A DNA stretch of 64,000 nt from an uncultured Prevotellaceae bacterium. GTDB lineage: Bacteria > Bacteroidota > Bacteroidia > Bacteroidales > Bacteroidaceae. The first letter of the stretch is position 1. Each line of letters starts with the position of its first letter. Shown piece after piece: positions 250 to 57,168 of this stretch. Below the pieces are notes generated by a model, which was given only the letters and a program-made list of their open reading frames with translations, made no database searches and was not told where the DNA came from. The stretch lies in NCBI GenBank assembly GCA_947166305.1, contig CAMVDV010000009.1, positions 11,619 to 75,618 on the forward strand, written 5' to 3'. The position numbers and the translations under genes were made by a program.

Positions 250-1167
250 ATGATAAACCGCAGAACATTCCTTCGTGGCAGTCTGGCCGGAGCAGCCTTG
301 CTTGCCGCACCTTCCGCCCTTTCGGCCCGGGCCGAAACAAAGGCCGATGATGCCGACGACCGTAAGAACTCTACCGTCAAGCCGCAGGCCAAGGGCGACA
401 ACGGGGTGGGGGAGACGTTCCACCTCGGCATGGCTGGCTACACTTTCGTCAAGTTCGACATCGACCGCACCCTTGCCTTCATGAAGAAGATTGATGTCCA
501 CTATCTTTGCATCAAGGACTTCCACCTGCCGCTCAGTGCCGATGAGAGTCAGATAGCAAGCTTCAAGGCAAAACTTGCAGCCCACGACGTCGTGGGATAT
601 GCAGTCGGTCCCATCTATATGAAGGACGCGGCGGCCGTCGATGAGGCCTTTGCCTACGCCCAGCGTGTAGGAGTCAACCTCATTGTGGGCGTGCCTGGCG
701 TCTGGGGCGACAAGGCTCCGCGCATGGACGTGCTGGAGAGAGTGGAGCAAAAGGTCAGGGAGACCGACATACGCTACGCCATTCATCTGCACGGCCCCGA
801 CATGACGCTCTATCCCGACGCTACGTCCATCTGGAACGACATCAAGGATCGCGACCCTCGCCTCGGCATTTGCCTCGACATCGGCCATAACCTTCGCTAT
901 GGAGCCGACTCGATACGCGACCTGAAGCGCTACGCCAAGCGGGTCTTCGACATTCACCTCAAGGACGTCACCGCTGCCACGAAGGCCGGACACGCCGTGG
1001 AATTGGGCCGAGGCATCATCGACTTCCACCGCTTCGTCAAGATGCTTCGCAAGGTAGGCTACAGCGGTTCGGTCAGCCTGGAGTACGAGAAGGACATGAC
1101 CGACCCGTTCCTCGGCATCGCAGAGAGCGTCGGTTACTTCAAAGCCGTCATGGACGAAAAAGGTTAG
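250..1167 (+). CDS. Tat-signal sugar phosphate isomerase/epimerase (xylose-isomerase-like TIM barrel) family protein
   Basis: N-terminus MINRRTFLRGSLAGAALLAAPSALSARA has a twin-arginine motif. The body looks like AP_endonuc_2/xylose isomerase-like (HLHGPD, CLDIGH, SLEYE). Confidence 0.8.
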   Translation: MINRRTFLRGSLAGAALLAAPSALSARAETKADDADDRKNSTVKPQAKGDNGVGETFHLGMAGYTFVKFDIDRTLAFMKKIDVHYLCIKDFHLPLSADESQIASFKAKLAAHDVVGYAVGPIYMKDAAAVDEAFAYAQRVGVNLIVGVPGVWGDKAPRMDVLERVEQKVRETDIRYAIHLHGPDMTLYPDATSIWNDIKDRDPRLGICLDIGHNLRYGADSIRDLKRYAKRVFDIHLKDVTAATKAGHAVELGRGIIDFHRFVKMLRKVGYSGSVSLEYEKDMTDPFLGIAESVGYFKAVMDEKG

Positions 1168-1203
1168 AAAGTTGAAAAGTTGAAAAGTTAAAAGGTTGAA
1201 AAT
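1158..1203. repeat. Simple 8-9-nt tract (GTTGAAAAG type) overlapping the stop codon of the upstream gene
   Basis: Reads aaaggttagaaagttgaaaagttgaaaagttaaaaggttgaaaatg. Confidence 0.9.
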
Positions 1204-1244
1204 GAGTTCTCCGACTTCCCTTTCAGGGGGAAGAACAGGAGAAA

Positions 1245-1273
1245 TGTAGGGACGCTCCGTGGCGCGTCCGCCC
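1245..1273. repeat. REP-like GC hairpin
   Basis: Reads tgtagGGACGCTCCgtGGCGCGTCCgccc, with flank gcccaatcat shared with the 48493 copy. Confidence 0.8.
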
Positions 1274-1315
1274 AATCATGCGGGGGAAAAACTGAAAGAG
1301 GAAAAGCATGAACCC

Positions 1316-1403
1316 GAAAACCCTGCAGGATTATCGTGAAAACCCTGCAGGATTATTGCCATAACCCCACGGGATTATCGTGATAACCCTGTGGGATTAT
1401 AAC
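1316..1403. repeat. Tandem array, 4 x 22 bp (AACCCTGCAGGATTATCGTGAN)
   Basis: Four contiguous 22-bp units, each with a CCTGCAGG-like palindrome; 88 bp in total. Confidence 0.9.
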
Positions 1404-1450
1404 TTTTCAACCTTTTAACTTTTTAATTTTTTAACTTTTAACTTTTAACG
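1403..1450. repeat. Simple 8-nt tract (CTTTTAAC type), inverted relative to 1158-1203
   Basis: Reads cttttcaaccttttaactttttaattttttaacttttaacttttaacg. Confidence 0.9.
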
Positions 1451-1476
1451 CTCCTACAGGGTTTCTTTAATATCCC

Positions 1477-1564
1477 ATCAGCAAGCGTTCCTAAACGCAG
1501 CAGCAAACGTTCCTAAATGCAGCAGCAAGCGTTCCCAAACGCAGCAGCAAGCGTTTCATAACCC
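1477..1564. repeat. Tandem array, 4 x 22 bp (AGCAGCAAGCGTTCCTAAACGC)
   Basis: Four contiguous 22-bp units; 88 bp in total. Confidence 0.9.
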
Positions 1565-1593: not shown

Positions 1594-1628
1594 AACAAAG
1601 GAGAGAGCCCTCCGAAAGGACTCTCTCC
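1594..1628 (-). terminator. Intrinsic terminator after tRNA-Thr
   Basis: Minus strand reads GGAGAGAG-tcctttcggaggg-CTCTCTCC followed by TTTGTT. Confidence 0.6.
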
Positions 1629-1643
1629 AAATGCTCCCACCTG

Positions 1644-1716
<73 letters not shown>

Positions 1717-1727
1717 GTTTGCGGTTG

Positions 1728-1735
1728 CAAAGATA
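1728..1735 (-). promoter_or_regulatory. -7 box (TATCTTTG on minus strand) for tRNA-Thr
   Basis: Plus strand reads caaagata, 12 nt upstream of the tRNA 5' end. Confidence 0.55.
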
Positions 1736-1740
1736 CAACA

Positions 1741-1773
1741 AAAAGTGAAAAGTGAAAAGTGAAAAGAGAAAAA
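1741..1773. repeat. Simple tract (GTGAAAAG)n
   Basis: Reads aaaagtgaaaagtgaaaagtgaaaagagaaaaa. Confidence 0.9.
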
Positions 1774-2857: not shown

Positions 2858-2858
2858 C

Positions 2859-2976
2859 GACCCCCCATCCCCCTTTAGGGGGAGGAAGGACCCTCTCTAA
2901 CTCCCCCCTTAAAGGGAGAGGACTCTGCGGCGGGAACTCCCCCTAAAAGGGGGGCGGGGGTCTGTAGTCGGGGGTC
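2859..2976. repeat. GC-rich multi-hairpin element, intergenic copy (about 1.3 units)
   Basis: Bounded by GACCCC...GGGGTC. Inner hairpins are CCCCCTTTAGGGGG, CTCCCCCCTTAAAGGGAGAG and CTCCCCCTAAAAGGGGGG. Confidence 0.9.
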
Positions 2977-3010
2977 TTTTATTAAAAATATAATACCTAA
3001 AAAAAACAAC

Positions 3011-4642
3011 ATGAGATTAAAGGCGACGGCCATCGTGCTGGCTTTCCTGACGACAGCAGGAGCATCAGCAGACATTGACAAAGCATTAGAAACCTTCGAC
3101 GAGCAGCCCGATGTGGCCACAGCCACTGGCTTCTTCGACGAACTCCTGAAGGAAGAATTCATCGACGAACAAGTTCGTTTCCCCATAGGCACACCCCCCG
3201 ACTCGCTGCAGCAGCAAGTGTGGTACTGGGCAGCCGAATGGTTCTACGACAAACAGCAGTATGAGAAGGCCGAAGCCTACGCCCTGAAAGCCCTGCCGAA
3301 GTACCATCCGTCCAATCCCGAGAAGGCCGACTGCCTCAACACCCTTGGCTGCATCTACGTCCGCCTCAGCGATTTCAAGCAGGCGGCAAGCTATGCCAGG
3401 CAAAGCGTGGAGATAGAAATGCAAGGAGGCAACCACGACCGCATATCCTCGAGCCTCAACACCCTGGCCGGCATTTACATGGCAGGATATCAGGCTAAAG
3501 AGGCAGAAGACATCATCCTCCAAGCCCTCGCACATGCAGAGCAAGCCGACAATCCGGGCCGTAAGGCTATCATCCTGGGCATGGCCTCAGAGATTTATCA
3601 CACGCTGGGTAACGACGAGAAGGCACTCTCCTACGCTGAGCAGGCCATCGAGCTGGAGAAACAACTGAACCGCCCCCAAAAGCTCCTGATACGCCTTTCG
3701 CAGAAAGGGTCGGCACTGCTCGGCCTTCATCGCTACGAGGAGGCAGAAGCCATCTACCGCCAGATAGCTCCACAGCTCAAGCAGATGGGCGACTATCATT
3801 CCTACGCTATCGCCCTCAACCACCTCGGCATGTCCCTTCTCTGCCAAGAACGGCAGCAGCAGGCCATACCTTATTACAGGGAAGCCGCCGACCTCTTCTC
3901 GCGCATGGGCGACCTCTACAACGAAATCCATTCGCACCGAGGACTCTACGAAAGCTACTGGGAACTGAATCCCGACTCGGCGAAGATAGAACTCGACCGC
4001 TTCGACTTGCTCAAGGACTCCCTCTACACGCACTCCACCGCCGAGGCTCTGTCGCGCTACAACGCCGAATTTAGCAACGACGTGTTGCAGCAGGAGAACA
4101 AGGAAGTGAGGCAAGCGCATCGCCGCACCATCATCCTCGGCACAGTCCTCTTGCTGCTGATAGCAGTCGGTGCGTGGCTTGCCATTCTCTACAGCCGTCG
4201 TCGCTGGCAGAGGCAGATGCAGGAACTGATAAAGGAAGTGGAAAAGACCCTCTCTAACTCTTCCTTAAAGAGAGAGGACTCAGCGAAGGAACTCCCCCTA
4301 AAGGGGGTCGGGGGGTCTGAAGAGTCTTTCCTCATGCGCGTCATCGAAGCCGTCAACGAAGCGATGCCTCAGGGCAACTTCGGCGTAGAGCAGATTGCTG
4401 CCGAGCTTGGCATGAGCGTGCAGACATTCCGTCGCCGTCTCTTTGACGCCGCAGGCGAGTCCCCGAAGTCCTTCATCCAAGCCATTCAGATGGAGCGAGC
4501 CGTAAAACTCCTTTCCGAAAAGCCCGACCTTTCCATCTCGCAGGTGGCAAATCTCTGCGGTTTCGACGAGGCAAGTTCCTTCGGACACACCTTCCGACGC
4601 ATCTACGGCTGTTCGCCTTCCGAATACAAAAAAACGCGATGA
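3011..4642 (+). CDS. Membrane-anchored TPR-repeat sensor with C-terminal AraC-type HTH
   Basis: Signal-like N-terminus, TPR-like repeats, TM helix TIILGTVLLLLIAVGAWLAILY, then an AraC HTH (SVQTFRRRLF..., ISQVANLCGFDEASSFGHTFRRIYGCSPSEY). Confidence 0.85.
   Translation: MRLKATAIVLAFLTTAGASADIDKALETFDEQPDVATATGFFDELLKEEFIDEQVRFPIGTPPDSLQQQVWYWAAEWFYDKQQYEKAEAYALKALPKYHPSNPEKADCLNTLGCIYVRLSDFKQAASYARQSVEIEMQGGNHDRISSSLNTLAGIYMAGYQAKEAEDIILQALAHAEQADNPGRKAIILGMASEIYHTLGNDEKALSYAEQAIELEKQLNRPQKLLIRLSQKGSALLGLHRYEEAEAIYRQIAPQLKQMGDYHSYAIALNHLGMSLLCQERQQQAIPYYREAADLFSRMGDLYNEIHSHRGLYESYWELNPDSAKIELDRFDLLKDSLYTHSTAEALSRYNAEFSNDVLQQENKEVRQAHRRTIILGTVLLLLIAVGAWLAILYSRRRWQRQMQELIKEVEKTLSNSSLKREDSAKELPLKGVGGSEESFLMRVIEAVNEAMPQGNFGVEQIAAELGMSVQTFRRRLFDAAGESPKSFIQAIQMERAVKLLSEKPDLSISQVANLCGFDEASSFGHTFRRIYGCSPSEYKKTR
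4246..4317. repeat. Multi-hairpin element copy inside the TPR/AraC CDS (72 bp, in frame)
   Basis: Reads gaccctctctaactcttccttaaagagagaggactcagcgaaggaactccccctaaagggggtcggggggtc and encodes TLSNSSLKREDSAKELPLKGVGGS. Confidence 0.85.
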
Positions 4643-8000: not shown

Positions 8001-9631
8001 TTGCCGTCACCGAGGCATGCGACCACAGCGGCAGCACGAAGCAAACCGCTCGCGTGGAGCCTACTTGCAGCAGCCACGGCTACGAGCCCAGCACGCTCTG
8101 CGCTGACTGCGACGAGGTTCTTGAGGAAGGCGCACGCATTCCTGCACTTGGGCACGACCTGCCCAGCACGCCTATCGCAGGAACCGAAGTCGTGGAGTAC
8201 TGCACGACATGGGTTCAGGATTATAATCAGTATGGAAAGCCGAACACCGCTACGCACGGCTACACGGGCGACTTCCTCTGCAACCGTTGCGGCCAGACGG
8301 TTAAGGGCGAGCCGACGCCCCTCCGCCATGGGAAACACGACAAGAACAATCAATACATAAGGCCTGGATATATTTGGACTAGCTATCAGAAATGGGTGGA
8401 GGCGACGAATCCCCCCACCTGCACCAAGGCTGGATACGAGGATGATCTCTATTGCATCTACTGCAACAAGCTTGTTCAGAAGGGCGAGCGCGTAGAAGCC
8501 CACGGGCATGACTGGGAGTCATGGTACGTAGTGCGCGAGGCCACGACGAAGGTGAAGGGCATGGAGCAGCGCGTCTGCGCCTACGACTATTCGCACGTCG
8601 AGACACGCATCACTGACTACAGCGGTCCGGACTACACGCTGAAGCCCGAAAGGCAGAAGCTCCGCTTCGAATGGACCTACGGAGAGCCTGTTCCGTCGCA
8701 GACCATCACGTTCAAGTCCACTGGCCGCGACAGCATCGGTTCCATTGAGTATGCCGAAGAGCCCAACGGTTACCTCGACGTGACCGTGGACGGCATGACC
8801 ATCACCGCCAAGCCTAATATCGACAATGTAAAATGGGAACGTAGCGACATGGAATACGACGTAGTAGTGACAGACCTTCTCACACCGGCAAACGAGACCA
8901 TCGAAAGCTTCACTGTTCCCGAGATTAAAGCCACCTGCATCATCAAGAAGACGCCCGAGAAGTACTTGCTGACCGTGGAAGACGGCTTGGCCACGACCTT
9001 CACCATGAGCAGACCCGAGTGGACTTACAGCACGGACAGGAGCAACATGCTGAAGGTGCGCGGCGGTGAGTTCGTAGAGCTGGAGCCTGAGGACGAATGG
9101 AAGCATGACTTCCTGCGTTGGGAGGTGATAAAAGGCTCCGACGACATACAGGAGGATGTGCATGAATCCAGGACGAAGAATACACGCTTCGTCATGTCGC
9201 CTGCCGACGTCACCATCCGCGCCATCTACAGGAAGAACGCTCCGACCATGAAGTTCAAGCAGACGGAAGTGACGGCAAGCGTGGAAGAGCCCTTCAAGGA
9301 GCCTGCACTCATCACGATACCGGGCAAGCTGCCTGTCACCTACAGCAGCTCCGACGAGAGGGTTGTACGGGTGAATCCCAAGACTGGCACCGTATCCTTC
9401 ATGGGAGCCGGCACCGCCGTCATCACGGCGACCTCTGCCGAGACCAACCACTATGCTTCCTCGGCAACGTCCTACACGCTCATCGTGCCGCAGGACTTCA
9501 TCACAGGAATAAAGACCCTCTCCGGCTCTCCCTTAAAGGGAGAGGGCATGTTCAACACTGGCGGCCAGCGCGTCGGCGACAGTTACCGTGGCATCGTCGT
9601 GACGAAGAACAAGAAGGAACTGAAGAAGTGA
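5039..9631 (+). CDS. Secreted 1530-aa cysteine-rich repeat protein with a C-terminal Big_2-like Ig domain and a short T9SS-like tail
   Basis: Signal peptide MKTNLTFARITMALAIALFPFLKANA. About 80 Cys fall in residues 42-462 as CxxC modules, with further His/CxxC modules after that. A Big_2-like segment (VTYSSSDERVVRVNPKTGTVSFMGAGTAVITATS) precedes the tail MFNTGGQRVGDSYRGIVVTKNKKELKK. Confidence 0.85.
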   Translation: MKTNLTFARITMALAIALFPFLKANAWDWEWTDTWGEAVAWCEECGNEYIIYADNSAEAESAAEDLFCSDCGCCSEDVNMDCYREHHCQFCDGCIDNGEYHVGIYNLFDEYIHYDCAIELIESGDVDACSYCHELFGEGAVECDCGVGDKHCTDCSESKCEKCGKCLLIAGDETDAASGDACIDHGICGECMPDASADDQTHCRICFNCDEDICDECGMCESCAVYEEHCPECGYCFGDEVQWCADDGEHCVNCCKDNGWLCPACERCVDGAGIYICDDCGMCEECCLSESEGEGCIHGICTASSEFYDHLCPECGECPQDEECDYCGLCINCQTGYHCEHELCPDGSEWDDHVCPDCGECFDDGELCEFCGLCENCREHCEHDFCPENDDDSDHFICNQCGDCFEAIDRCDECELCLVCCDDNTQSMGCDHGFCVVSDDFEEHWCYEDDQCLELCEHDPECTHSNVTLDYAINGNAHWRVCEDCGLTVDKAQHTGGEPVTLTSPNAATHTNGTAQVNCIVCNYKMGIVPIPYVEAPADGSPYIIIQPTDYTGKTNTAAWKEEEDDRYATFKVKAGGEGLSYQWYCRYGTGSGTKLSDDSYTLGTQTPTLKTLVYGEDCERQNRNIYCIVSNSKGSVTSDAAYFKAEHVFGRYTKKDNETHENHCFGEGCSVVKATSKHRFTEWTLVRPATSSETGLREQQCMDCAYKKSESIPMVEPDHVHSYDIAKYNMSQHWFVCACGIAGPDAAVDHVFDESEVVTPATETKRGENRIICSACGFFKTEKTDKLPHVHDWYTFGEISIVLPNGHSGPDPKKGSYGPNSHTIKCKGCNEKKTDRHVWGMFECMRDAKVQGNDTIAGRIVRYCDICSYKEEKFYPLGSWPIMIAGGTAYKGLTNRAGQVIKWIPAAYAKKGDKIEVAYDALAARSLGDNQPQKFVEWVDGASWIGETNIPWDNGRSSIDLPRLTFRLSRTTRRYGFTMPDGPATIFAVTEACDHSGSTKQTARVEPTCSSHGYEPSTLCADCDEVLEEGARIPALGHDLPSTPIAGTEVVEYCTTWVQDYNQYGKPNTATHGYTGDFLCNRCGQTVKGEPTPLRHGKHDKNNQYIRPGYIWTSYQKWVEATNPPTCTKAGYEDDLYCIYCNKLVQKGERVEAHGHDWESWYVVREATTKVKGMEQRVCAYDYSHVETRITDYSGPDYTLKPERQKLRFEWTYGEPVPSQTITFKSTGRDSIGSIEYAEEPNGYLDVTVDGMTITAKPNIDNVKWERSDMEYDVVVTDLLTPANETIESFTVPEIKATCIIKKTPEKYLLTVEDGLATTFTMSRPEWTYSTDRSNMLKVRGGEFVELEPEDEWKHDFLRWEVIKGSDDIQEDVHESRTKNTRFVMSPADVTIRAIYRKNAPTMKFKQTEVTASVEEPFKEPALITIPGKLPVTYSSSDERVVRVNPKTGTVSFMGAGTAVITATSAETNHYASSATSYTLIVPQDFITGIKTLSGSPLKGEGMFNTGGQRVGDSYRGIVVTKNKKELKK
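9514..9546. repeat. Partial multi-hairpin element (first hairpin) inside the giant CDS tail
   Basis: Reads gaccctctccggctctcccttaaagggagaggg and encodes TLSGSPLKGEG in the same phase as the other coding copies. Confidence 0.75.
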
Positions 9632-9857: not shown

Positions 9858-12377
9858 CTACAGTCTTCCCGAGCGTGAGATGAGGGAGTGTAGGCGGTCG
9901 GTCAGTGTGTCGGCCGAGAGCAGGCGCGAGATGGGCAGGTGCATCCTGTAGCGCCAGTAGTTCTTGGGATTGGCTGGTACGTTGATACGCTCCTCTTCCG
10001 GATGCGGATTTCGCAGGTCTTTATCCACCGAAAGCCAGTCCTGCAGACTGATGAGGCAAAGCATTGAGGGACTGCCGAGGTGCTGTGCCACGACTTCCTC
10101 GCAAAGCTCTGGGGTGAGGTCGGCCGGGGCTTCGCCGTCGTGCCCAAGCACATTGTTGTAGAAAAGCTGTGAGCGACGGACGTTCTCTCTCCACCAGAGG
10201 CGCAGCGTCGGCATGTCGTGGGTGAAGATGGTGTCGACGCTCTGATAGGGATTCTCCTGCAACGAGGCGAATGGGACGCCGTAGGCTTTCGGCATAGCCT
10301 GTATCTCGAGGCTCAGGATGCCGAGCTTCTGCATGACGGGGCCGACGCAGGCCGGCACCATTCCCAAGTCCTCGCCGCACACCAGCATGTTCGTTGCGTC
10401 GATGAGGGCGGGCAGTTTCTTCATGGCCTCAGCAGCCCAGAAGTCGTTGTGGCGGCGGAAGAAGTAGTCTTCGTAGAGGCGGATGAAGGCATTCTGCTCG
10501 TAGCTTCCGAGAGCATTCCATGCGTCCCGGCCAATCACGCCGATGCGGGGGTGGAAGAGTCCTGGCTGACAGTGCGGCACGAACAGTTCGTCGCGGAAGG
10601 TCACGCCGTAGGAAGCGATTTCTTCCTTCGTGAGAGGCAAGGCAGGAGAGAACTGTCCGAGCAGTGCATCGGGGTTCCCCTTGGGAATCTGCCAAATGCG
10701 GAAGAAGCCCAGGATGTGGTCGATGCGATAAGCACCGAAGTACTGTGCCATGCCTTGCAGCCGTTTCCTCCACCACTGATAGCCGTCGGCTGCCATGCGT
10801 TCCCAGTTGTAAGTGGGGAAACCCCAGTTCTGTCCGGACGGGGAGAAATCGTCGGGGGGAGCACCAGCCGTCATGTTCATGTTGAAGAGATGCGGCTCGT
10901 GCCATGCCTCCACGCTCTGTTGGCTGATACCGATGGGCAAGTCGCCTTTCAGGAAAATGCGTAGGCGGCGGGCATGGTCGGCGGCTTCGGCAAGCTGGCT
11001 GTGCAGCAGATGTTGCACGAAAGCATAGTAGCCGACTTCATGTCTGTGCCTTTCGACGTAGGCATCCACCTCGTCGCTGTTATAGGCAGACAGTTCGGGC
11101 CACTCGCTGAAGCGTGCCGTGCCATAAGTGTCGCGCAGGTGGCAGAAGACTTGATAGGGTTTGAGCCAAGACCAAGACCCCCCAACTACAGACCCCCCAT
11201 CCCCCTTTAGGGGGAGTTCCGCCGCTGAGTCCTCTCCCTTTAAGGGAGAGTTAGAGAGGGTCTCCTCCTCATAGAGCAGATGCAGGTACTCCTCCTTCAT
11301 TTTGATGACCTCCACATAGTCGAGGGCAGGCAATGCGTTCAGCTTCTGCCAGCGCTTCTTGAACTTTTCGAGCATCTTGGCATCGCGAAGAGGCAGTCTG
11401 CGCAGGTCGATGTAGATGGGATGCAGGGCATGGACGCTGATGGCATTATAGGGATAGCTGTCGGTCGGCGTGCGATTCTGCGTGGTGTCATTGATGGGAA
11501 GGAGCTGCACGGCGTGCATTCCGGCACGGGCTGCCCAGTCGCACATCTCTTTCAGGTCGCCGAAATCGCCTACGCCTTGGCTGCCTTCCGACTTCAAAGA
11601 GAACAGAGGAACGACCAGTCCCGCTGCCTTCCAAGGCGATGACGACAGACGGACCTCGCCATCCATCATGCAGACGACGTGGTTCTGCTCTGGCACGACG
11701 GACGGACATTGTCGATTGTCGCCTTCTTCCCACCTTGCCGAATGCTTCTCTCCTGTCACAACATATTTATATTGGAAAGGCAGACGCAGGCCGTCGGCAC
11801 TGATGGAGAGCAGCCATTCCTGCTGACTCGACGGCGTCATGGGCAAGGCGCGACGCACATCCCAGGCTCCGAGCGAAGGCTGGTCGCCGACGAGGGCAAC
11901 CCTTTCGCCTGCAGAAAGATGGGGAGCCTGCACGCGGAAAAGGAACGTGCGGGGGAAAAGGGCCACTCCTGCCGCCTGTCTCACCTCCATTCCCGACGCA
12001 ATCTGATAGGCTGCCGTGTAGCGATAAGAGTCGTCGGGCCTGTCGCGCCAGTGGTCGTAGAGGAAATAGGTGCGGGCATCGTCGGCAGGGAAGAGCCTCG
12101 GCACGGCATCCCATTCGCGTCGAAGCACACGCATCTGTTCCGTTTCGCCCCACGCCGACTGGCCCTTCGATGGACTCGACGGCACGATATTGTAGGAATA
12201 TCTGAACTGTTCGCCGCGAGCACGGAGGATGCTGATGCCTTTCCACATGAGTCCATCCGACGTTTCCAAGGGGATGCGATGCCGGTAGGCCTTGCCATCC
12301 GCAGAAAGGAAGCAAAGTTCCACCTCAAGGCTCTCTCCCCAATTCGTTCTGTATTCAATCGAAAAATGTAAAGTCAT
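9858..12377 (-). CDS. malQ: 4-alpha-glucanotransferase (GH77 amylomaltase) with N-terminal CBM20-like starch-binding modules
   Basis: GH77-like body (GDLPIGIS, DDFSPSGQNWGFPTYNW, YRIDHILGFFRIW, CGEDLGMVP). The N-terminus looks like CBM20. I chose the start at MTLHFSIEY because a -7 box lies 28 nt upstream; the ORF-track TTG at 12407 is unlikely. Confidence 0.9.
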   Translation of the reverse strand: MTLHFSIEYRTNWGESLEVELCFLSADGKAYRHRIPLETSDGLMWKGISILRARGEQFRYSYNIVPSSPSKGQSAWGETEQMRVLRREWDAVPRLFPADDARTYFLYDHWRDRPDDSYRYTAAYQIASGMEVRQAAGVALFPRTFLFRVQAPHLSAGERVALVGDQPSLGAWDVRRALPMTPSSQQEWLLSISADGLRLPFQYKYVVTGEKHSARWEEGDNRQCPSVVPEQNHVVCMMDGEVRLSSSPWKAAGLVVPLFSLKSEGSQGVGDFGDLKEMCDWAARAGMHAVQLLPINDTTQNRTPTDSYPYNAISVHALHPIYIDLRRLPLRDAKMLEKFKKRWQKLNALPALDYVEVIKMKEEYLHLLYEEETLSNSPLKGEDSAAELPLKGDGGSVVGGSWSWLKPYQVFCHLRDTYGTARFSEWPELSAYNSDEVDAYVERHRHEVGYYAFVQHLLHSQLAEAADHARRLRIFLKGDLPIGISQQSVEAWHEPHLFNMNMTAGAPPDDFSPSGQNWGFPTYNWERMAADGYQWWRKRLQGMAQYFGAYRIDHILGFFRIWQIPKGNPDALLGQFSPALPLTKEEIASYGVTFRDELFVPHCQPGLFHPRIGVIGRDAWNALGSYEQNAFIRLYEDYFFRRHNDFWAAEAMKKLPALIDATNMLVCGEDLGMVPACVGPVMQKLGILSLEIQAMPKAYGVPFASLQENPYQSVDTIFTHDMPTLRLWWRENVRRSQLFYNNVLGHDGEAPADLTPELCEEVVAQHLGSPSMLCLISLQDWLSVDKDLRNPHPEEERINVPANPKNYWRYRMHLPISRLLSADTLTDRLHSLISRSGRL
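11176..11262. repeat. Multi-hairpin element copy inside malQ (87 bp, in frame)
   Basis: It is the reverse complement of the 2889-2976 copy, so it has the same orientation relative to its host gene. It encodes TLSNSPLKGEDSAAELPLKGDGGSVVGGS. Confidence 0.9.
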
Positions 12378-12412: not shown

Positions 12413-12714
12413 GGGATAATTAAAGAAAATGGCAAGAACTGAGGAAGAAAAATGCTAAAATGCTTGCATAATCCGTCAAGAATGCCTAAATTTGCATTAT
12501 CAAATAAGTCCGAGATGGTCTTGGAGCGTCAAGACATTGACATCATAAGGGCGTGCTGGTCAGATCGGGATACTCATCAATTTACACTTCATTACCGAGA
12601 AATGTTTCGTATGCTAATGGCGTGCCATCCCATTCGTGGTTAGGTGGATTACAAAGGCAGCGAACCCTCAAAACCTGTTTTTCGGAGTTTCATCACATCG
12701 CCAGTGCGCCCCTT

Positions 12715-13821
12715 TTATTTTCCCTTCAACACGTGTTCCACTTCTTCGTCGCTGTCGGTCAGGCAGAGGATGAGGTTTTTGTATGTACCGTCGTCGACGA
12801 GCCTCATGAGCAAGGGCCAGATGGGTATTTTCTCTGTCCAGAAGTGTGTGTCGAGGAATATCATTGGCGATGCATAGCCGAAGGTGAGGTAGTGGTTCTG
12901 CACTGCCTCCTGGAAGATTTCCTGCAGGGTTCCGGCGCTGCCGGGTGTGTAGATGATGCCACCCTTGGCGATGGTGAGGATGCCGTCCTCGCGGATGCTG
13001 TTGTCGAAGTACTTTGCGATGTGTGTGGCGAAAGGCGTGGATGGTTCATGTCCATAGAGCCAAGTGGGGACGCCGAGGCTTGTGTAGCCCAGATTGGGGT
13101 ACTTGTTGTGTACTTGCCAAGCGGTGGAGAGCCAGAGAGGGTGAGTGTAGAGCGGTGCAACGCGCAGCATGTCGAGCGCTTCCTGCAGTTCGTCCGAGCT
13201 TCTTCCGGCCATCCATGCGCCCAGATGTGTTGCCTCCATTGCCCCCGGGCCTCCGCCGGTGATCATGAGGAAGCCTGCCTCGGTGAGTCGTTTGCTGAGC
13301 TTTGCCACCATTTCATACGAGATGTCGCAGCGCGAGATGCTGTGGCCGCCCATCACTCCGACGAGCCTGTGTTCGTCGAAGTCCTCAAGGAAGTCGTTCA
13401 GACAGTCTGTGATGGAGTGGTCATGCAAAGCCCTTGCCAGTGTTTCCTTCACGTCGGTGGCGTGCTTTCCCTTCTTCAGGTAGTGTCGATAGACGCGTCC
13501 GTCGAAGCATTGTTCGTAGCTTTCCGGCTGGTCGGGACGGTAGCCTTCGTAGAGTTCTTCGGGCGAATAGAGGTGATTGGGAAAGTCGAATGTCTCGCCC
13601 ATGTTGGGGAGGAAGAGGCAATCCCTTGACCGTCGTTTGAGTCCCATCGGCAGTCGGCAGCTCAGGAAGAGGCATTCGCGATAGGTATGGGAGAGTGCCT
13701 GCTCGGGAAACTCCGTGAAGTCTGTGCTCTGGAAGGCAACGTGGCGGAGTTCCTCCTCGGGCTGTGCGAGCTGGCAGGACAGTTCCTGCTGGTTTCTTAT
13801 CTGTAGGTATTTGTCTTTCAT
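12715..13821 (-). CDS. LOG-family / PpnN-like nucleotide 5'-monophosphate nucleosidase family protein
   Basis: Motifs GGGPGAMEATHLGAW and TPGSAGTLQEIFQ (LOG PGGxGTxxE-like). Its start overlaps the smpB stop as TGATG. Confidence 0.75.
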   Translation of the reverse strand: MKDKYLQIRNQQELSCQLAQPEEELRHVAFQSTDFTEFPEQALSHTYRECLFLSCRLPMGLKRRSRDCLFLPNMGETFDFPNHLYSPEELYEGYRPDQPESYEQCFDGRVYRHYLKKGKHATDVKETLARALHDHSITDCLNDFLEDFDEHRLVGVMGGHSISRCDISYEMVAKLSKRLTEAGFLMITGGGPGAMEATHLGAWMAGRSSDELQEALDMLRVAPLYTHPLWLSTAWQVHNKYPNLGYTSLGVPTWLYGHEPSTPFATHIAKYFDNSIREDGILTIAKGGIIYTPGSAGTLQEIFQEAVQNHYLTFGYASPMIFLDTHFWTEKIPIWPLLMRLVDDGTYKNLILCLTDSDEEVEHVLKGK

Positions 13822-14946: not shown

Positions 14947-15067
14947 CGAATAAGAGATGGAAAAGCAAAGGAAAATCCTGTTTATTTTACTTTCCGCTGC
15001 CCTCGCAGAGGGCTTTCTGCTGTCTTTCGGCGGTGGATTCTTCGCCACGCCCCGTGCGACGTTCTTT

Positions 15068-15155
15068 GCATGGTCATGATGCTGCAATTGCAGGTTCATG
15101 ATGTTGCAATTGCACGGTCATGACCATGCAATCATAACCCTGCAGGGTTCTGTGA
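15068..15155. repeat. Tandem array, 4 x 22 bp (GCANGGTCATGANNNTGCAATT x3 plus ATAACCCTGCAGGGTTCTGTGA)
   Basis: Contiguous 22-bp units, 88 bp in total. Same family as 57081-57168. Confidence 0.9.
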
Positions 15156-16658: not shown

Positions 16659-16754
16659 CTTTTAACCACGAACCAGCACGAGTTGCACGAATTTCGAATA
16701 AACTTTTAATCAAAAGCTGAACGATTCGTGTGATTCGTGCAATTCGTGGTTAAG
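16659..16754. repeat. Inverted arrays of CACGAAT-type 9-10-mers (hairpin element)
   Basis: Left arm cttttaaccacgaaccagcacgagttgcacgaatttcg; right arm cgattcgtgtgattcgtgcaattcgtggttaag. Confidence 0.8.
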
Positions 16755-26510: not shown

Positions 26511-26610
26511 GAGAGGGCATAAAGGACGCTTCGACACGAGAGTAGGAAGTAATCGACTACTGAACTTTTGAAACAGAAATCGCTTACTTACCGCGAATTG
26601 CTTGTTCCTT

Positions 26611-26740
26611 CACCACGAATTGCACGAATTACACGAATTCGGCATATTATGAACTACCACGAATTTCACGAATTACACTAATTCTTGACGCTTATATAGT
26701 GCGCAGCCAATTCGTGCAATTCGTGTAATTCGTGGTTAAG
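26611..26740. repeat. Inverted arrays of (N)CACGAATT 9-mers; 130-bp hairpin element
   Basis: Left arm caccacgaattgcacgaattacacgaattcgg; right arm ccaattcgtgcaattcgtgtaattcgtggttaag; an extra inner copy at 26655-26677. Confidence 0.85.
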
Positions 26741-26789: not shown

Positions 26790-27422
26790 TCACTTTGCTT
26801 TCTCGGCTGTGAACTTCAAGTTGCCGTTCTTCAGCTTGGTTACGACGAAGACTTGTCGGCGAAGTTCGCCTTTTTCGTGGTCGAAGATGCGCGACGAGTC
26901 GAAGGCTTTGCCCTTGACACGCGTCTCAAAGTGCAGGTGATCGCCCGTGGCACGTCCTGTACGTCCTTCCAGTCCTACAGGGTCTCCGGGCTGAAGCCAC
27001 TGCCCGACTTTGACAAGATTGCGTGAATGATGGCTGTAGAGCGTCTCAAGTCCGTTGGCATGACGCAGGATGACACAGTTCCCGTAAGCATAAAAAGGCC
27101 CCGAGAGGATGACTTCTCCGGGAAAGGCAGCCCTGGTCGTGTCGCCGGCAAACGTCTTTAGGTCAGTCCCTCCGTGGTGTCTTTCTCCACCAAACGGGCT
27201 GTTCACCTTTGCCCCCGGCAGCGGATAGTGCCACTCCTCCTTTGTATAATTGACAAAGTTGATGGTGAACTGATTGCGATTGGCAAACGGGTCTTTGGCC
27301 GCCTCCACCTTCATCACCTGCCATTCATCAATGTCAACTCTGTCGCTCTGTGCGCGAATCATTGAACATTGACTATTGACCATTGACCATTGAAGCAACA
27401 GGCAAAGCAAGACTCTGTTCAT
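26790..27422 (-). CDS. M23 family metallopeptidase
   Basis: HHGGTDLK, GNCVILRHANGLETLYSHHS, GRATGDHLHFE; signal-like N-terminus. Confidence 0.85.
   Translation of the reverse strand: MNRVLLCLLLQWSMVNSQCSMIRAQSDRVDIDEWQVMKVEAAKDPFANRNQFTINFVNYTKEEWHYPLPGAKVNSPFGGERHHGGTDLKTFAGDTTRAAFPGEVILSGPFYAYGNCVILRHANGLETLYSHHSRNLVKVGQWLQPGDPVGLEGRTGRATGDHLHFETRVKGKAFDSSRIFDHEKGELRRQVFVVTKLKNGNLKFTAEKAK
27361..27395. repeat. Heptamer tract (ATTGAMN x5) inside the M23 signal-peptide codons
   Basis: Reads attgaac attgact attgacc attgacc attgaag and encodes LQWSMVNSQCSM on the minus strand. Confidence 0.85.
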
Positions 27423-33162: not shown

Positions 33163-33190
33163 AGAAAAGGTGAAAAAGTGAAAAGGAGAA
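33163..33190. repeat. Simple tract (GTGAAAAG type)
   Basis: Reads agaaaaggtgaaaaagtgaaaaggagaa. Confidence 0.8.
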
Positions 33191-33250
33191 CAATCAGAAA
33201 AGAGGGAGAAAGGATGGCGCGACGAAATGGCTCGTGTCCGTGGCGTAAGA

Positions 33251-33331
33251 TTTCCGCGTGCGGCGTTGGCAATCCCCGCGTGCGGCGTTGGCAATCCCCG
33301 CGTGCTGCGATGGCAATCCCCGCGTGCTGCG
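33251..33331. repeat. 22-bp-period tandem array, CGCCGCACGCG family (reverse orientation, ~3.7 units)
   Basis: Reads tttccgcgtgcggcgttggcaa/tccccgcgtgcggcgttggcaa/tccccgcgtgctgcgatggcaa/tccccgcgtgctgcg. Confidence 0.9.
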
Positions 33332-33354
33332 TTTTAATTCTTTTTCAGTCCCAT

Positions 33355-33412
33355 TTTTACTTTTCTTTTTCACTTTTTAACCATTTCACTTTTTCACTTT
33401 TTCACTTTTTTT
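33355..33412. repeat. Simple tract (CTTTTTCA type), inverted relative to 33163-33190
   Basis: Reads ttttacttttctttttcactttttaaccatttcactttttcactttttcactttttttt. Confidence 0.85.
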
Positions 33413-46417: not shown

Positions 46418-46495
46418 ATTCATCAACCTTTTCATTCCTCCATTTCTTCATTTCTTTTATTTTTCATTCTTTCGTTTCTTCATTTTTCATTTTAT
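46418..46495. repeat. Simple tract (TTCATTTC type)
   Basis: Reads ttcatcaaccttttcattcctccatttcttcatttcttttatttttcattctttcgtttcttcatttttcatttt. Confidence 0.85.
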
Positions 46496-48492: not shown

Positions 48493-48527
48493 TGTAGGGA
48501 TGCGCCGTGGCGCGTCCGCCCAATCAT
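48493..48527. repeat. REP-like GC hairpin with conserved flank
   Basis: Reads tgtagGGATGCGCCgtGGCGCGTCCgcccaatcat. Confidence 0.85.
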
Positions 48528-51240: not shown

Positions 51241-51316
51241 AGCCCTCCTGCCGTATGCGGGAGGCTTCAGCATTACGGCGCAAATAAACATCTTTGCGGA
51301 AACGTGCAAGAAAAAT

Positions 51317-51488
51317 CGAAGCAGACGAAGCAGGCGAAGCAACATTTTTTTTGAGGGGTGTGCTGCTATTATATTAATAATATAGGCATACTTTAGCTAA
51401 TATATTAGTGATATACAGCGACTTGTGTGTCATTTTCGCCCGCTTCGCCCGCTTCGGTTGCTTCGGTTGCTTCGGTTGCTTCGTTTCG
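51317..51488. repeat. Inverted 9-mer tracts (CGAAGCANN ... GCTTCGGTT x4) flanking an AT-rich core
   Basis: Left tract cgaagcagacgaagcaggcgaagcaac; right tract gcccgcttcgcccgcttcggttgcttcggttgcttcggttgcttcgtttcg. Confidence 0.8.
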
Positions 51489-53106: not shown

Positions 53107-53211
53107 GGGAGATAGAAGAAGATAGAGGGAGATAGAAGACGATACCGCTTACAGCTAAAGCATTTGTCCTCTATCTTCGTCGCTGAAAGCGACATATCTT
53201 CTTCTATCTTC
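53107..53211. repeat. Inverted GATAGAAGA-type tracts (long imperfect hairpin) with an inner hairpin GTCGCtgaaaGCGAC
   Basis: Left arm gggagatagaagaagatagagggagatagaagacgata; right arm tcctctatcttcgtcgctgaaagcgacatatcttcttctatcttc. Confidence 0.75.
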
Positions 53212-53224
53212 TTTTTTCTTCATT

Positions 53225-54043: not shown

Positions 54044-54045
54044 AT

Positions 54046-54250
54046 TAAAAGGTTAAAAGGTTAAAAGGTTAAAAAGTTAAAAGGTTTTGAGGTTATGGGG
54101 TTATGAGGTTATGGGGTTTTGAGGTTATGAGGTTATGGGGTTATGAGGTTATGGGGTTATGAGGTTATGGGGTTATGAGGTTATGGGGTTATGAGGTTAT
54201 GGGGTTTGAGGTTATGAGGTTAAAAAGTTAAAGGGTTAAAAGGTGAAAAT
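54046..54250. repeat. 205-bp simple-repeat block: (GGTTAAAA)n, then about 14 x GGTTATGR, then (GGTTAAAA)n
   Basis: It fills the entire gap between the BSP-like start codon and the SbcC-like stop codon. It is the longest tract in the window. Confidence 0.95.
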
Positions 54251-54254
54251 GTTA

Positions 54255-57080: not shown

Positions 57081-57168
57081 AGAACCCTGTAGGGTTTTGT
57101 TTGCAGGGTCATGACCATGCAATTGCAGCATCATGACCCTGCAATTGAATGGTCATGATGCTGCAATC
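57081..57168. repeat. Tandem array, 4 x 22 bp (AGAACCCTGTAGGGTTTTGTTT plus GCANNNTCATGANNNTGCAATT x3)
   Basis: 88 bp in total. Same family as 15068-15155, with the CCCTGNAGGG unit at the opposite end. Confidence 0.9.

Follow-up and report, generated by a model that had tools for sequence, protein, structure and literature searches.

A composite repeat island between a TIM-barrel gene and tRNA-Thr in a rumen Bacteroidaceae genome, probably a patchwork of lineage-wide repeat classes

The DNA analysed here (the window) is a stretch of 64,000 nucleotides from an uncultured Prevotellaceae bacterium (contig CAMVDV010000009.1 of assembly GCA_947166305.1, positions 11,619 to 75,618 of the forward strand), and all positions given below are those of the window unless a locus of a relative is named. 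The 475-bp spacer at 1168-1642, with convergent genes on either side, one encoding a TIM-barrel protein (the TIM gene) and the other tRNA-Thr, is filled by a composite repeat island. We propose that the island is probably a patchwork of independent repeat classes that occur throughout the lineage, and that it would have originated by slippage and by hairpin-templated copying. The classes would be (i) simple tracts of 7-9 bp units without C or without G (long simple sequence repeats, SSRs); (ii) 22-bp minisatellites, the unit of which is often a circular palindrome made of two inverted 11-mers; (iii) a GTAG-headed repetitive extragenic palindromic (REP) hairpin; and (iv) ordinary terminator hairpins.

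Repeat content of the intergenic DNA and of the island

Gene calls made from the G+C content of third codon positions (GC3) plus Pfam leave 33 intergenic regions, which amount to 7272 bp or 11.4% of the window. Arrays detected by Tandem Repeats Finder (TRF) cover 28% of the intergenic bases versus 0.6% of the coding bases. There are 42 intergenic arrays, 12 of them with period 22, while 100 dinucleotide-preserving shuffles of the intergenic regions yielded means of 0.83 and 0.02, respectively; about 30 of the arrays are of short period, compared to fewer than one array of any period in the shuffles. The statement of the initial annotation that the island is not random low complexity is upheld. 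A self-match profile, which is independent of TRF, showed sharp peaks at lag 8 and lag 22, each accompanied by its multiples. At lag 22 the intergenic DNA gave 50.6 self-matches per kb (lag 21, 1.8; lag 23, 3.4) and the coding DNA 0.05. The 22-bp arrays are found at 11 intergenic loci, at some together with tracts and at others without, and they adjoin convergent, divergent and tandem gene pairs alike. The modular structure that had been claimed for the island is upheld as well. Tract, REP hairpin and 22-bp array each also occur alone in many other intergenic regions, which speaks against a single mobile cassette, and simple tracts stand singly beside most genes. The island thus exemplifies a habit of the whole genome.

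Every element of the island that the initial annotation had listed was recovered in the order given, with small corrections of coordinates (Table 1). TRF places the left tract at 1168-1202 (period 8, 4.4 copies; composition A19 T8 G8 C0) and the right tract at 1400-1446 (period 8, 6 copies; A12 T28 G0 C7). The left inverted-repeat arm reaches 1158 and thus overlaps the last codons and the stop of the upstream gene. The arms 1168-1202 and 1404-1438 are 35 nt long, 91% complementary and 201 nt apart, and all three mismatches between them are a G opposite a T. The order of the unit variants agrees between the two arms, which argues for a true inverted repeat and not merely a flipped motif. The spacer folds far more stably than its shuffled versions do (z = -6.65 on the plus strand, -7.6 on the minus). 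The small hairpin at 1215-1233 is of a CCC..TTTA..GGG type that is common in the genome.

Between the tracts lies the first 22-bp array (array D), which TRF delimits at 1316-1400 (3.9 copies, 79% matches), a degenerate extra first unit starting at 1297. Its unit is a circular palindrome with a dyad score of 8/11 and dyad centres between CTG and CAG and between CG and TG, 11 bp apart. A single inverted D unit at 1452-1477, absent from the initial annotation, follows the right tract, so that D units of opposite orientation flank the T-rich tract on its two sides. The second 22-bp array (array E; TRF 1479-1555, 3.5 copies, 90% matches) had been described as unrelated to the first, and it is indeed a separate family: its unit consists of a hairpin with a 5-bp stem (GCGTT/AACGC) and an 8-nt spacer, and in a unit search within the window it was found solely at its own locus. 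In both arrays the period-22 units are contiguous with 0% indels according to TRF, that is, they are arranged head to tail as in minisatellites. A clustered regularly interspaced short palindromic repeat (CRISPR) array was rejected, since the units are contiguous, with a start-to-start distance of exactly 22, and are not separated by unique spacers. Iterons of the plasmid type were rejected as well, the window being 64 kb of housekeeping chromosome with twelve period-22 arrays and no rep gene.

The REP hairpin at 1246-1269 (GTAGGGACGCTCCGTGGCGCGTCC) contains a palindrome, GGACGCTCC and GGCGCGTCC, of 9 nt with 89% complementarity and a 2-nt gap; judged by its sequence, it has the hallmarks of a GTAG-type REP. 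The 24-mer GTAGGGACGCGCCGTGGCGCGTCC has four copies in the window with at most one mismatch (1246+, 15764+, 48494+, 52322-), where 0 are expected; two further copies are degenerate, and all copies within the 64 kb are intergenic. The four copies all start with GTAGGGA and lie 33-84 nt past a stop codon in the same orientation as that gene (4/4), and an A-rich tandem tract precedes three of them. The flank of the REP copy at 1245-1279 is shared with 48493-48527, the two forming a 35-nt family (D9) with 94% identity. As to its wider distribution (loci L161-L191), the exact 24-mer was seen in many contigs of two Porphyromonadaceae metagenome-assembled genomes (MAGs) and of several Prevotella MAGs, and also, between unrelated flanks, in MAGs that bear the labels Anaerolineae, Peregrinibacteria and Rhodothermia, a range that is unusually wide for a REP. 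Horizontal spread, convergence and bin contamination are possible causes of this spread.

Period, polarity and turnover of the repeats

Among 62 distinct 22-bp units, 31 show complementarity at 7 or more of the 11 dyad pairs, compared to about 7 units expected. Units of this dyad type are composed of two inverted 11-mers and have a dyad centre at intervals of 11 bp. One family, with the consensus ACGTGTTAAGTTTGCAAACTTA and a symmetric information profile, takes in 35 of the 62 units of this first data set and is represented in six window arrays (9728, 24839/24893, 33254, 38177, 43798 and 50805). A second family, TTGCA-N12-TGCAA, was found at 15066, at 57101 and in several relatives, and is shared across genera. 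Arrays D and E both fall outside the ACGTGTTAAGTTTGCAAACTTA family, while D shares the two-centre architecture. A single family for all 22-bp units was rejected: in the second data set, taken from the ackA region, the consensus fits only 5 of 40 units (5 of the 26 from the clade and none of the 14 from other Bacteroidaceae). The conserved property is the period, often with a dyad, and not the sequence; this sharply fixed 22-bp unit is the most unusual component of the island. Mismatches at dyad positions, counted to tell RNA pairing from DNA pairing, comprise 139 G:T versus 110 A:C, but these totals reflect mostly a single fixed mismatch that recurs from unit to unit and so do not discriminate between the two. 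The -7 promoter box (TAAGTTTG) that can be read within the family consensus was discarded as a feature, being rare in individual arrays and falling on positions of low information. The palindrome AACCCTGYAGGGTT, which is the core of the array D unit, occurs also at 15136-15149 and 57083-57096, where it flanks the TTGCA-N12-TGCAA arrays 15066-15123 and 57101-57158 on opposite sides; by this arrangement the two loci resemble a single composite copied in opposite orientations.

The layout of tract, core and inverted tract recurs at the loci that had been named in the initial annotation and at two more. In the module at 33164-33410 the arms (33164-33203 and 33364-33403, 40 nt, 78% complementary) enclose a 22-bp array between the divergent genes of LepA and of a periplasmic binding protein (Pfam), and the T-rich tract abuts a -7 box. 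The module at 51314-51486 has arms of 30 nt (51314-51343 and 51457-51486, 83% complementary), and that at 53110-53221 has arms of 15 nt with 100% complementarity (53110-53124 and 53195-53209), also readable as 27 nt at 81%. Sister copies of the module at 26608-26740 were located at 16677-16748 and in a relative (L091 1669-1745). Its hairpin, with tandem 9-mer arms CACGAATTR and YAATTCGTG, ends in …AATTCGTGGTTAAG and recurs between convergent genes at two window loci as well as in the relatives L091 and L183 (~3130-3175), one copy standing directly after a REP copy; it is a conserved dispersed family.

Wherever neighbouring tracts were related in sequence, they stood in inverted orientation, in 4 cases in the window and in 9 in relatives; none of the 13 pairs was direct. 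The A-rich arm came first in 14 of 15 related pairs, as read manually from the tables, and when adjacent tracts of any sequence were counted, the order was A-then-T in 23 and T-then-A in 9; the polarity counts are in part manual. By manual classification, about 24 of 29 window tracts follow the rule that the left part of an intergenic region is A-rich on the plus strand and the right part T-rich, and this rule is independent of the orientation of the flanking genes. Short tracts are nearly always devoid of any C or of any G. A T-rich tract abuts the Bacteroidetes -7 box TAnnTTTG at 33365-33410, 46431-46492 and 1741-1772 (minus strand). The T-rich tract as an obligatory upstream promoter element was rejected, because such a tract accompanies no more than 3 of the 13 -7 boxes that could be recognised. 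The longest tract of the window is C-free and compound, (TTAAAAGG)5, (AGGTTATG)21.8, (AGGTTAAA)5.8, and constitutes the whole 211-bp spacer between two minus-strand genes at 54044-54254. An M23 peptidase gene contains, in its N-terminal part, the heptamer tract (CATTGAC)x4.9 (27360-27393), and a period-7 tract stands at about the corresponding position in the nearest relative, RUG10906 (L192 9483-9517), which suggests that this heptamer repeat is translated and conserved.

The period spectrum was determined in relatives. In the first set, 951 kb around orthologues of the TIM gene (~105 loci), TRF counted 113 arrays of period 7, 39 of period 8 and 45 of period 14, and at periods 20, 21, 22 and 23 the counts were 0, 18, 63 and 1, respectively. 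More distant Bacteroidota (465 kb) yielded 0 arrays of period 7 and 3 of period 22. The pattern was reproduced in the independent ackA region, where 913 kb of the clade contained 31 arrays of period 22 (period 21, 15; period 23, 9; period 7, 48), and 505 kb of Bacteroides/Phocaeicola/Paraprevotella contained 14 (period 21, 5; period 23, 1; period 7, 24). In 16 pairs of relatives that are 95-99% identical, arrays and tracts account for most of the indels that measure 5 bp or more. Between the members of close pairs the 22-bp arrays differ by exactly 22 or 66 bp (L020/L104, L003/L085, L013/L097, L048/L136, L016/L106 and L003/L023), and the tract indels between close relatives measure 7, 8, 14 or 28 bp. 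This turnover is slipped-strand behaviour of the variable number tandem repeat (VNTR) type, and the change of arrays and tracts by whole units argues for a slipped-strand origin. A 22-bp array follows the TIM orthologue in about 14 of 38 relatives, with unit sequences that differ, and tRNA-Thr is not syntenic there. One relative (L011) carries a 395-bp block, composed of an 8.5-copy array and 230 bp, directly after the TIM orthologue; in L100, which is 97.7% identical to L011, a single unit is present at this site, with no terminal repeats or duplication visible.

Origin, mobility and function

The initial annotation had likened the two tracts to terminal inverted repeats and had considered the island a possibly mobile cassette. 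The first proposal holds in that the tracts do form long inverted arms, and fails in that these are simple tracts and not ends of the insertion sequence (IS) type. The second found no support at this locus, where there is neither a target-site duplication nor IS-like ends, nor a shared core or a duplicated tRNA end: the sequences that flank the block at 1158 and 1450, GACGAAAAAGGTTAG on the left and CGCTCCTACAGG on the right, share no direct repeat, no second copy of the 3' end of tRNA-Thr was found, and searches of plasmid and phage collections gave no match. According to the repeat census of the window, the core 1203-1399 has no second copy apart from the REP, and the cores of the modules in the window are mutually unrelated, sharing only the separately dispersed REP. 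A tRNA-targeting integrative element was rejected on the grounds that there is no second tRNA 3' end and that the spacer contains no genes. That the block 1158-1450 is a single non-autonomous element resembling MITEs (miniature inverted-repeat transposable elements), kin to the modules 33164-33410, 51314-51486 and 53110-53221, is quite unlikely. The specificity of the arms, which goes beyond the recurrence of a motif, the repeated and always inverted layout (13:0), the 395-bp block that is present in L011 and absent from L100, and a module of the same layout in relatives, variably present and found at two loci with a PF05635 gene, all accord with such an element. It is contradicted by the want of a target-site duplication and of an IS-like terminal repeat, by unrelated cores (the REP aside) and tract sequences that differ between the modules, by the occurrence of the same tracts singly beside most genes, by a Pfam scan of 35 window proteins in which no transposase was found, and by the lack of similarity to plasmids, to phages and to the unit of the BrickBuilt element of Porphyromonas gingivalis.

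The PF05635 module consists of inverted heptamers, (GACAACR)n ... (YGTTGTC)n, that enclose a 357-bp gene in three relatives (L003 8119-8652, L016 9380-9890 and L007 1702-2139). The enclosed gene encodes a 23S-rRNA-intervening-sequence (IVS) / four-helix-bundle protein (PF05635, E = 1e-32; TIGR02436). The cassette is absent from the L003 site in L085 (96.8% identical to L003), L023 and L001, which have instead a 150-bp stretch encoding the signal peptide of the adjacent gene, and in L007 it occupies a locus different from the L003 site. The module thus combines presence/absence and multi-locus behaviour with the same layout as the window modules. The heptamer tract of L003 seems to be translated and to supply the neighbouring gene with a substitute signal peptide (MSSVVRCPLSIVFFLLSVVCCPLS…). 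Similarly to an rRNA IVS, the gene in L003, L007 and L016 lies within long inverted arms whose RNA could pair into a double-stranded stem; it differs in that the cassette is outside rRNA and its arms are tandem heptamers, and the window modules are without such a gene.

There is some chance, if a modest one, that the repeats are functionless, a neutral by-product of a lineage-specific property of replication or repair that accumulates under weak selection, slipped or hairpin intermediates escaping correction. The confinement of the repeats to intergenic DNA, their fast turnover between close genomes, the different array sequences at orthologous positions after the TIM gene and the presence of repeats beside gene pairs of every orientation would all follow from it; it makes no obvious prediction of the A-first polarity (14 of 15 pairs of related tracts; 23:9 when adjacent tracts of any sequence are counted), and it predicts neither the orientation of the REP copies, which matches that of the upstream gene in 4/4 cases, nor the strict absence of C or G from the tracts, nor the sharp 22-bp period. 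The last of these could be accommodated if the 22-bp arrays were tandem sites of a putative dimeric DNA-binding protein (nucleoid-associated, partition-like or regulatory), 22 bp being two helical turns, so that all dyad centres, spaced at 11 bp, would face the same side of the helix. We regard this as very unlikely: the large symmetric ACGTGTTAAGTTTGCAAACTTA family and the recurrence of TTGCA-N12-TGCAA across genera fit binding sites, while the units as a whole are very diverse, the ackA set hardly fits the family, arrays D and E lie outside it, about 12 arrays per 64 kb occupy housekeeping regions between gene pairs of all orientations, and no candidate binding protein was identified. It is unlikely that the Bacteroidaceae possess an unrecognised, largely sequence-independent 22-bp "ruler" together with fixed-polarity inverted-tract modules, the island being a functional punctuation element. 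A protein or a hairpin-dependent replication intermediate would then create or preserve exact 22-bp arrays out of two inverted 11-mers, the tracts would act as long double-stranded RNA stems and serve as processing or termination sites, and some tracts would be the ends of mobile gene cassettes, such as that of the 23S-rRNA-IVS protein.

We favour the patchwork of independent classes. In addition to slippage, intrastrand hairpin-templated copying (quasi-palindrome correction) would make the arms and the palindromic units and keep them matched, and the REP copies would have been spread by a REP-associated transposase. The resulting island may be tolerated, or may be mildly useful as a structured bidirectional stop or insulator between the TIM gene and tRNA-Thr, which would prevent convergent transcripts from colliding and would provide them with structured 3' ends. 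The layout is its own reverse complement, hence the RNA of either strand reads A-rich arm, structured core and U-rich arm; on this analysis it resembles a bidirectional terminator or insulator, a resemblance on which we rely with considerably less confidence than on the patchwork itself. Several observations weigh against one part or another of this proposal. The terminator scan detected no canonical plus-strand terminator for the TIM gene, that of the tRNA being its only hit at the locus, and the U runs begin 8-12 nt past the nearest hairpins. The same layout occurs between the divergent genes at 33164-33410, where no terminator is needed and where the T-rich tract meets a -7 box. Slippage alone fails to explain the preference for period 22 over 20, 21 and 23. 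The three 22-bp indels that lie outside arrays include no tandem duplication, so the birth of an array was not caught, and the relatives are MAGs assembled from short reads, which are prone to mis-assembly of repeats. The Pfam scan of 35 window proteins turned up no REP-associated tyrosine transposase (RAYT, a Y1 transposase), and none was sought beyond the window.

A further hairpin element in the window is dispersed in another manner. It is a double hairpin of ~87 nt (…CCCTTAAAGGGAGAGG…CCCCCTAAAGGGGG…), which lies in frame inside two unrelated genes: in a TPR-AraC regulator it corresponds to aa 410-438 (VEKTLSNSSLKREDSAKELPLKGVGGSEE), and in a GH77 4-alpha-glucanotransferase to aa 380-408 (EEETLSNSPLKGEDSAAELPLKGDGGSVV), inside the catalytic domain. 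There is a partial copy in a 1530-aa protein and one non-coding copy between genes. In relatives, in-frame indels of 45 and 57 nt consisting of the same type of hairpin separate genomes that are 97% identical. The element resembles the Rickettsia palindromic elements, which insert into coding sequences.

Locus, relation to known systems and significance

The window is core chromosome of a Bacteroidales member, Prevotella/Bacteroidaceae-like and of rumen type, with ~56% G+C. Its housekeeping genes (Pfam) include those of YceG, SmpB, RuvA, Obg, Adk, LepA, a Mur ligase, FolP, AckA and QueC/QueF. The nearest public genomes are uncultured rumen Bacteroidaceae/Prevotellaceae MAGs, among them RUG10906 (LepA 96% identical in amino acids, 79% nucleotide identity across a syntenic block) and RUG12173 (AckA 94%). 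An exact-protein look-up of the TIM gene product gave no match; in the genome and metagenome scans its best identity was 78% in amino acids, and no conspecific sequence was found. On the far side of the island the promoter of tRNA-Thr has the Bacteroidetes -7 box TATCTTTG at 1728-1735 (minus strand), which is directly preceded on that strand by a T-rich tract, (CACTTTT)x4.6, at 1741-1772. In the window, Rfam 15 matched only tRNA and Bacteroidales-1 (6S) RNA and assigned no repeat to a family, and in 1100-1900 it returned nothing meaningful at E up to 5. The Bacteroidales-1 RNA, a proposed 6S RNA, lies full length at 12549-12717 (+; 128.6 bits) and abuts, or overlaps by a few bases, the 3' end of the gene 12715-13821 (-).

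Table 1 Position and support of the island elements, the neighbouring features and the related repeat modules.
Feature	Position	Strand	Basis
TAT-signal, xylose-isomerase-like TIM-barrel gene	250-1167	+	Pfam
A-rich, C-free simple tract, period 8-9, units GTTGAAAA / GTTAAAAG	1158-1202	+	TRF, inverted-repeat search
Small hairpin CTTCCC-tttcagg-GGGAAG	1215-1233		Sequence inspection; paired in both minimum-free-energy folds
REP-like element, TGTAG head and palindrome GGACGCTCC-GT-GGCGCGTCC	1245-1279	+	Copy search, stem I22
22-bp tandem array D, unit AACCCTGCAGGATTATCGTGAA, ~4.7 units	1297-1400	+	TRF, family D13
T-rich, G-free simple tract, units TAACTTTT	1400-1450	+	TRF, inverted-repeat search
Single inverted array-D unit TCCTACAGGGTTTCTTTAATATCCCA	1452-1477	-	Inverted pairs I12-I14 (13 nt, 92% complementary), I19
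22-bp tandem array E, unit CAGCAAGCGTTCCTAAACGCAG, ~4 units	1476-1564	+	TRF, family D11
tRNA-Thr intrinsic terminator, 13-bp stem then TTTGTT	1600-1628	-	Terminator scan; absent from the initial annotation
tRNA-Thr, anticodon CGT, convergent with the 250-1167 gene	1643-1716	-	ARAGORN; Rfam tRNA 70.2 bits
tRNA-Thr promoter region	1728-1772	-	TRF; -7 box scan
Module (CACGAATTR)n ... (YAATTCGTG)n, convergent genes	26608-26740		Arms 32 nt, 91% complementary
Module, A-rich tract, 22-bp array (33254-33333), T-rich tract	33164-33410		TRF, arm search, -7 box
Module (CGAAGCAGA)n ... (GCTTCGGTT)n, AT-rich core ~100 bp	51314-51486		TRF, arm search
Module (AGATAGAAGA)n ... (TATCTTCTTC)n	53110-53221		TRF, arm search
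Double-hairpin copies, window	4240-4322, 11186-11268, 9511-9545, 2858-2990		
Double-hairpin copies, relatives	L020 3137-3181; L002 2975-3031		

Bidirectional intrinsic terminators consist of an A-tract, a hairpin and a U-tract that are shared by convergent genes, with arms of 7-9 nt. The island is similar in presenting an A-rich arm, hairpins and a U-rich arm on both strands between convergent genes; it differs in its arms of 35-45 nt made of tandem units, in its 200-nt core with several hairpins, and in that the U runs stand off the stem. GTAG-headed REP/REPIN palindromes are reportedly spread by RAYT transposases. The island shares with REP elements and bacterial interspersed mosaic elements (BIMEs) the GTAG head, an imperfect 9-bp palindrome and several intergenic copies downstream of genes, and with BIMEs in particular the clusters of palindromes in alternating orientation, whereas the 22-bp arrays have a far shorter period than BIMEs and are far more diverse in sequence.

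The 22-bp arrays recall BrickBuilt, a minisatellite/MITE of Porphyromonas gingivalis with 23-nt head-to-tail units and dyad symmetry (Klein et al. 2015, PMC4596501). Both occur in the same bacterial order, both are strictly intergenic, both have dyad-symmetric units that span about two helical turns (23 nt in BrickBuilt, 22 in the present arrays), and in both the copy number shifts by whole units from strain to strain. BrickBuilt is one sequence family with a conserved 'leader' and 'tail', and its terminal inverted repeats match IS elements (PMC4596501). The present arrays, in contrast, have many unrelated units and no leader or tail, and are flanked by simple tracts or by nothing; the BrickBuilt unit is absent from the window. 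The tracts are comparable to long SSRs with units of 5-11 nt (Mrazek, Guo and Shah 2007, as summarised in PMC4679880), to which the heptamer repeats of Beggiatoa and cyanobacteria belong (PMC4679880). The common features are tandem units of 7-9 nt (heptamers dominate in the relatives), an intergenic position that often abuts start or stop codons, and a phylogenetically patchy occurrence. The tracts described here differ in that many unit sequences coexist in one genome, in the lack of C or G, and in the inverted pairs with A-then-T polarity; TAACTGA repeats are absent from the window. To our knowledge, inverted pairs of fixed polarity have not been described for long SSRs. In the literature searched, a sharp 22-bp period with diverse palindromic units across the Bacteroidaceae appears to be undescribed, and so do tracts without C or G and tract pairs that are always inverted and A-first.

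More than a quarter of the non-coding DNA of the window is built from a few rule-bound repeat types, and the same rules hold across many uncultured rumen Bacteroidaceae. Such repeats will mislead gene callers, predictors of promoters, terminators and small RNAs, and short-read assemblers in a group that is abundant in gut and rumen, and, changing by whole units between strains, they are ready markers for strain typing. A 22-bp period this sharp, shared by diverse sequences, points either to a structural constraint or to a dedicated mechanism, and the polarity rule suggests a role in keeping transcription units apart in a phylum with little-charted terminators and RNA processing.

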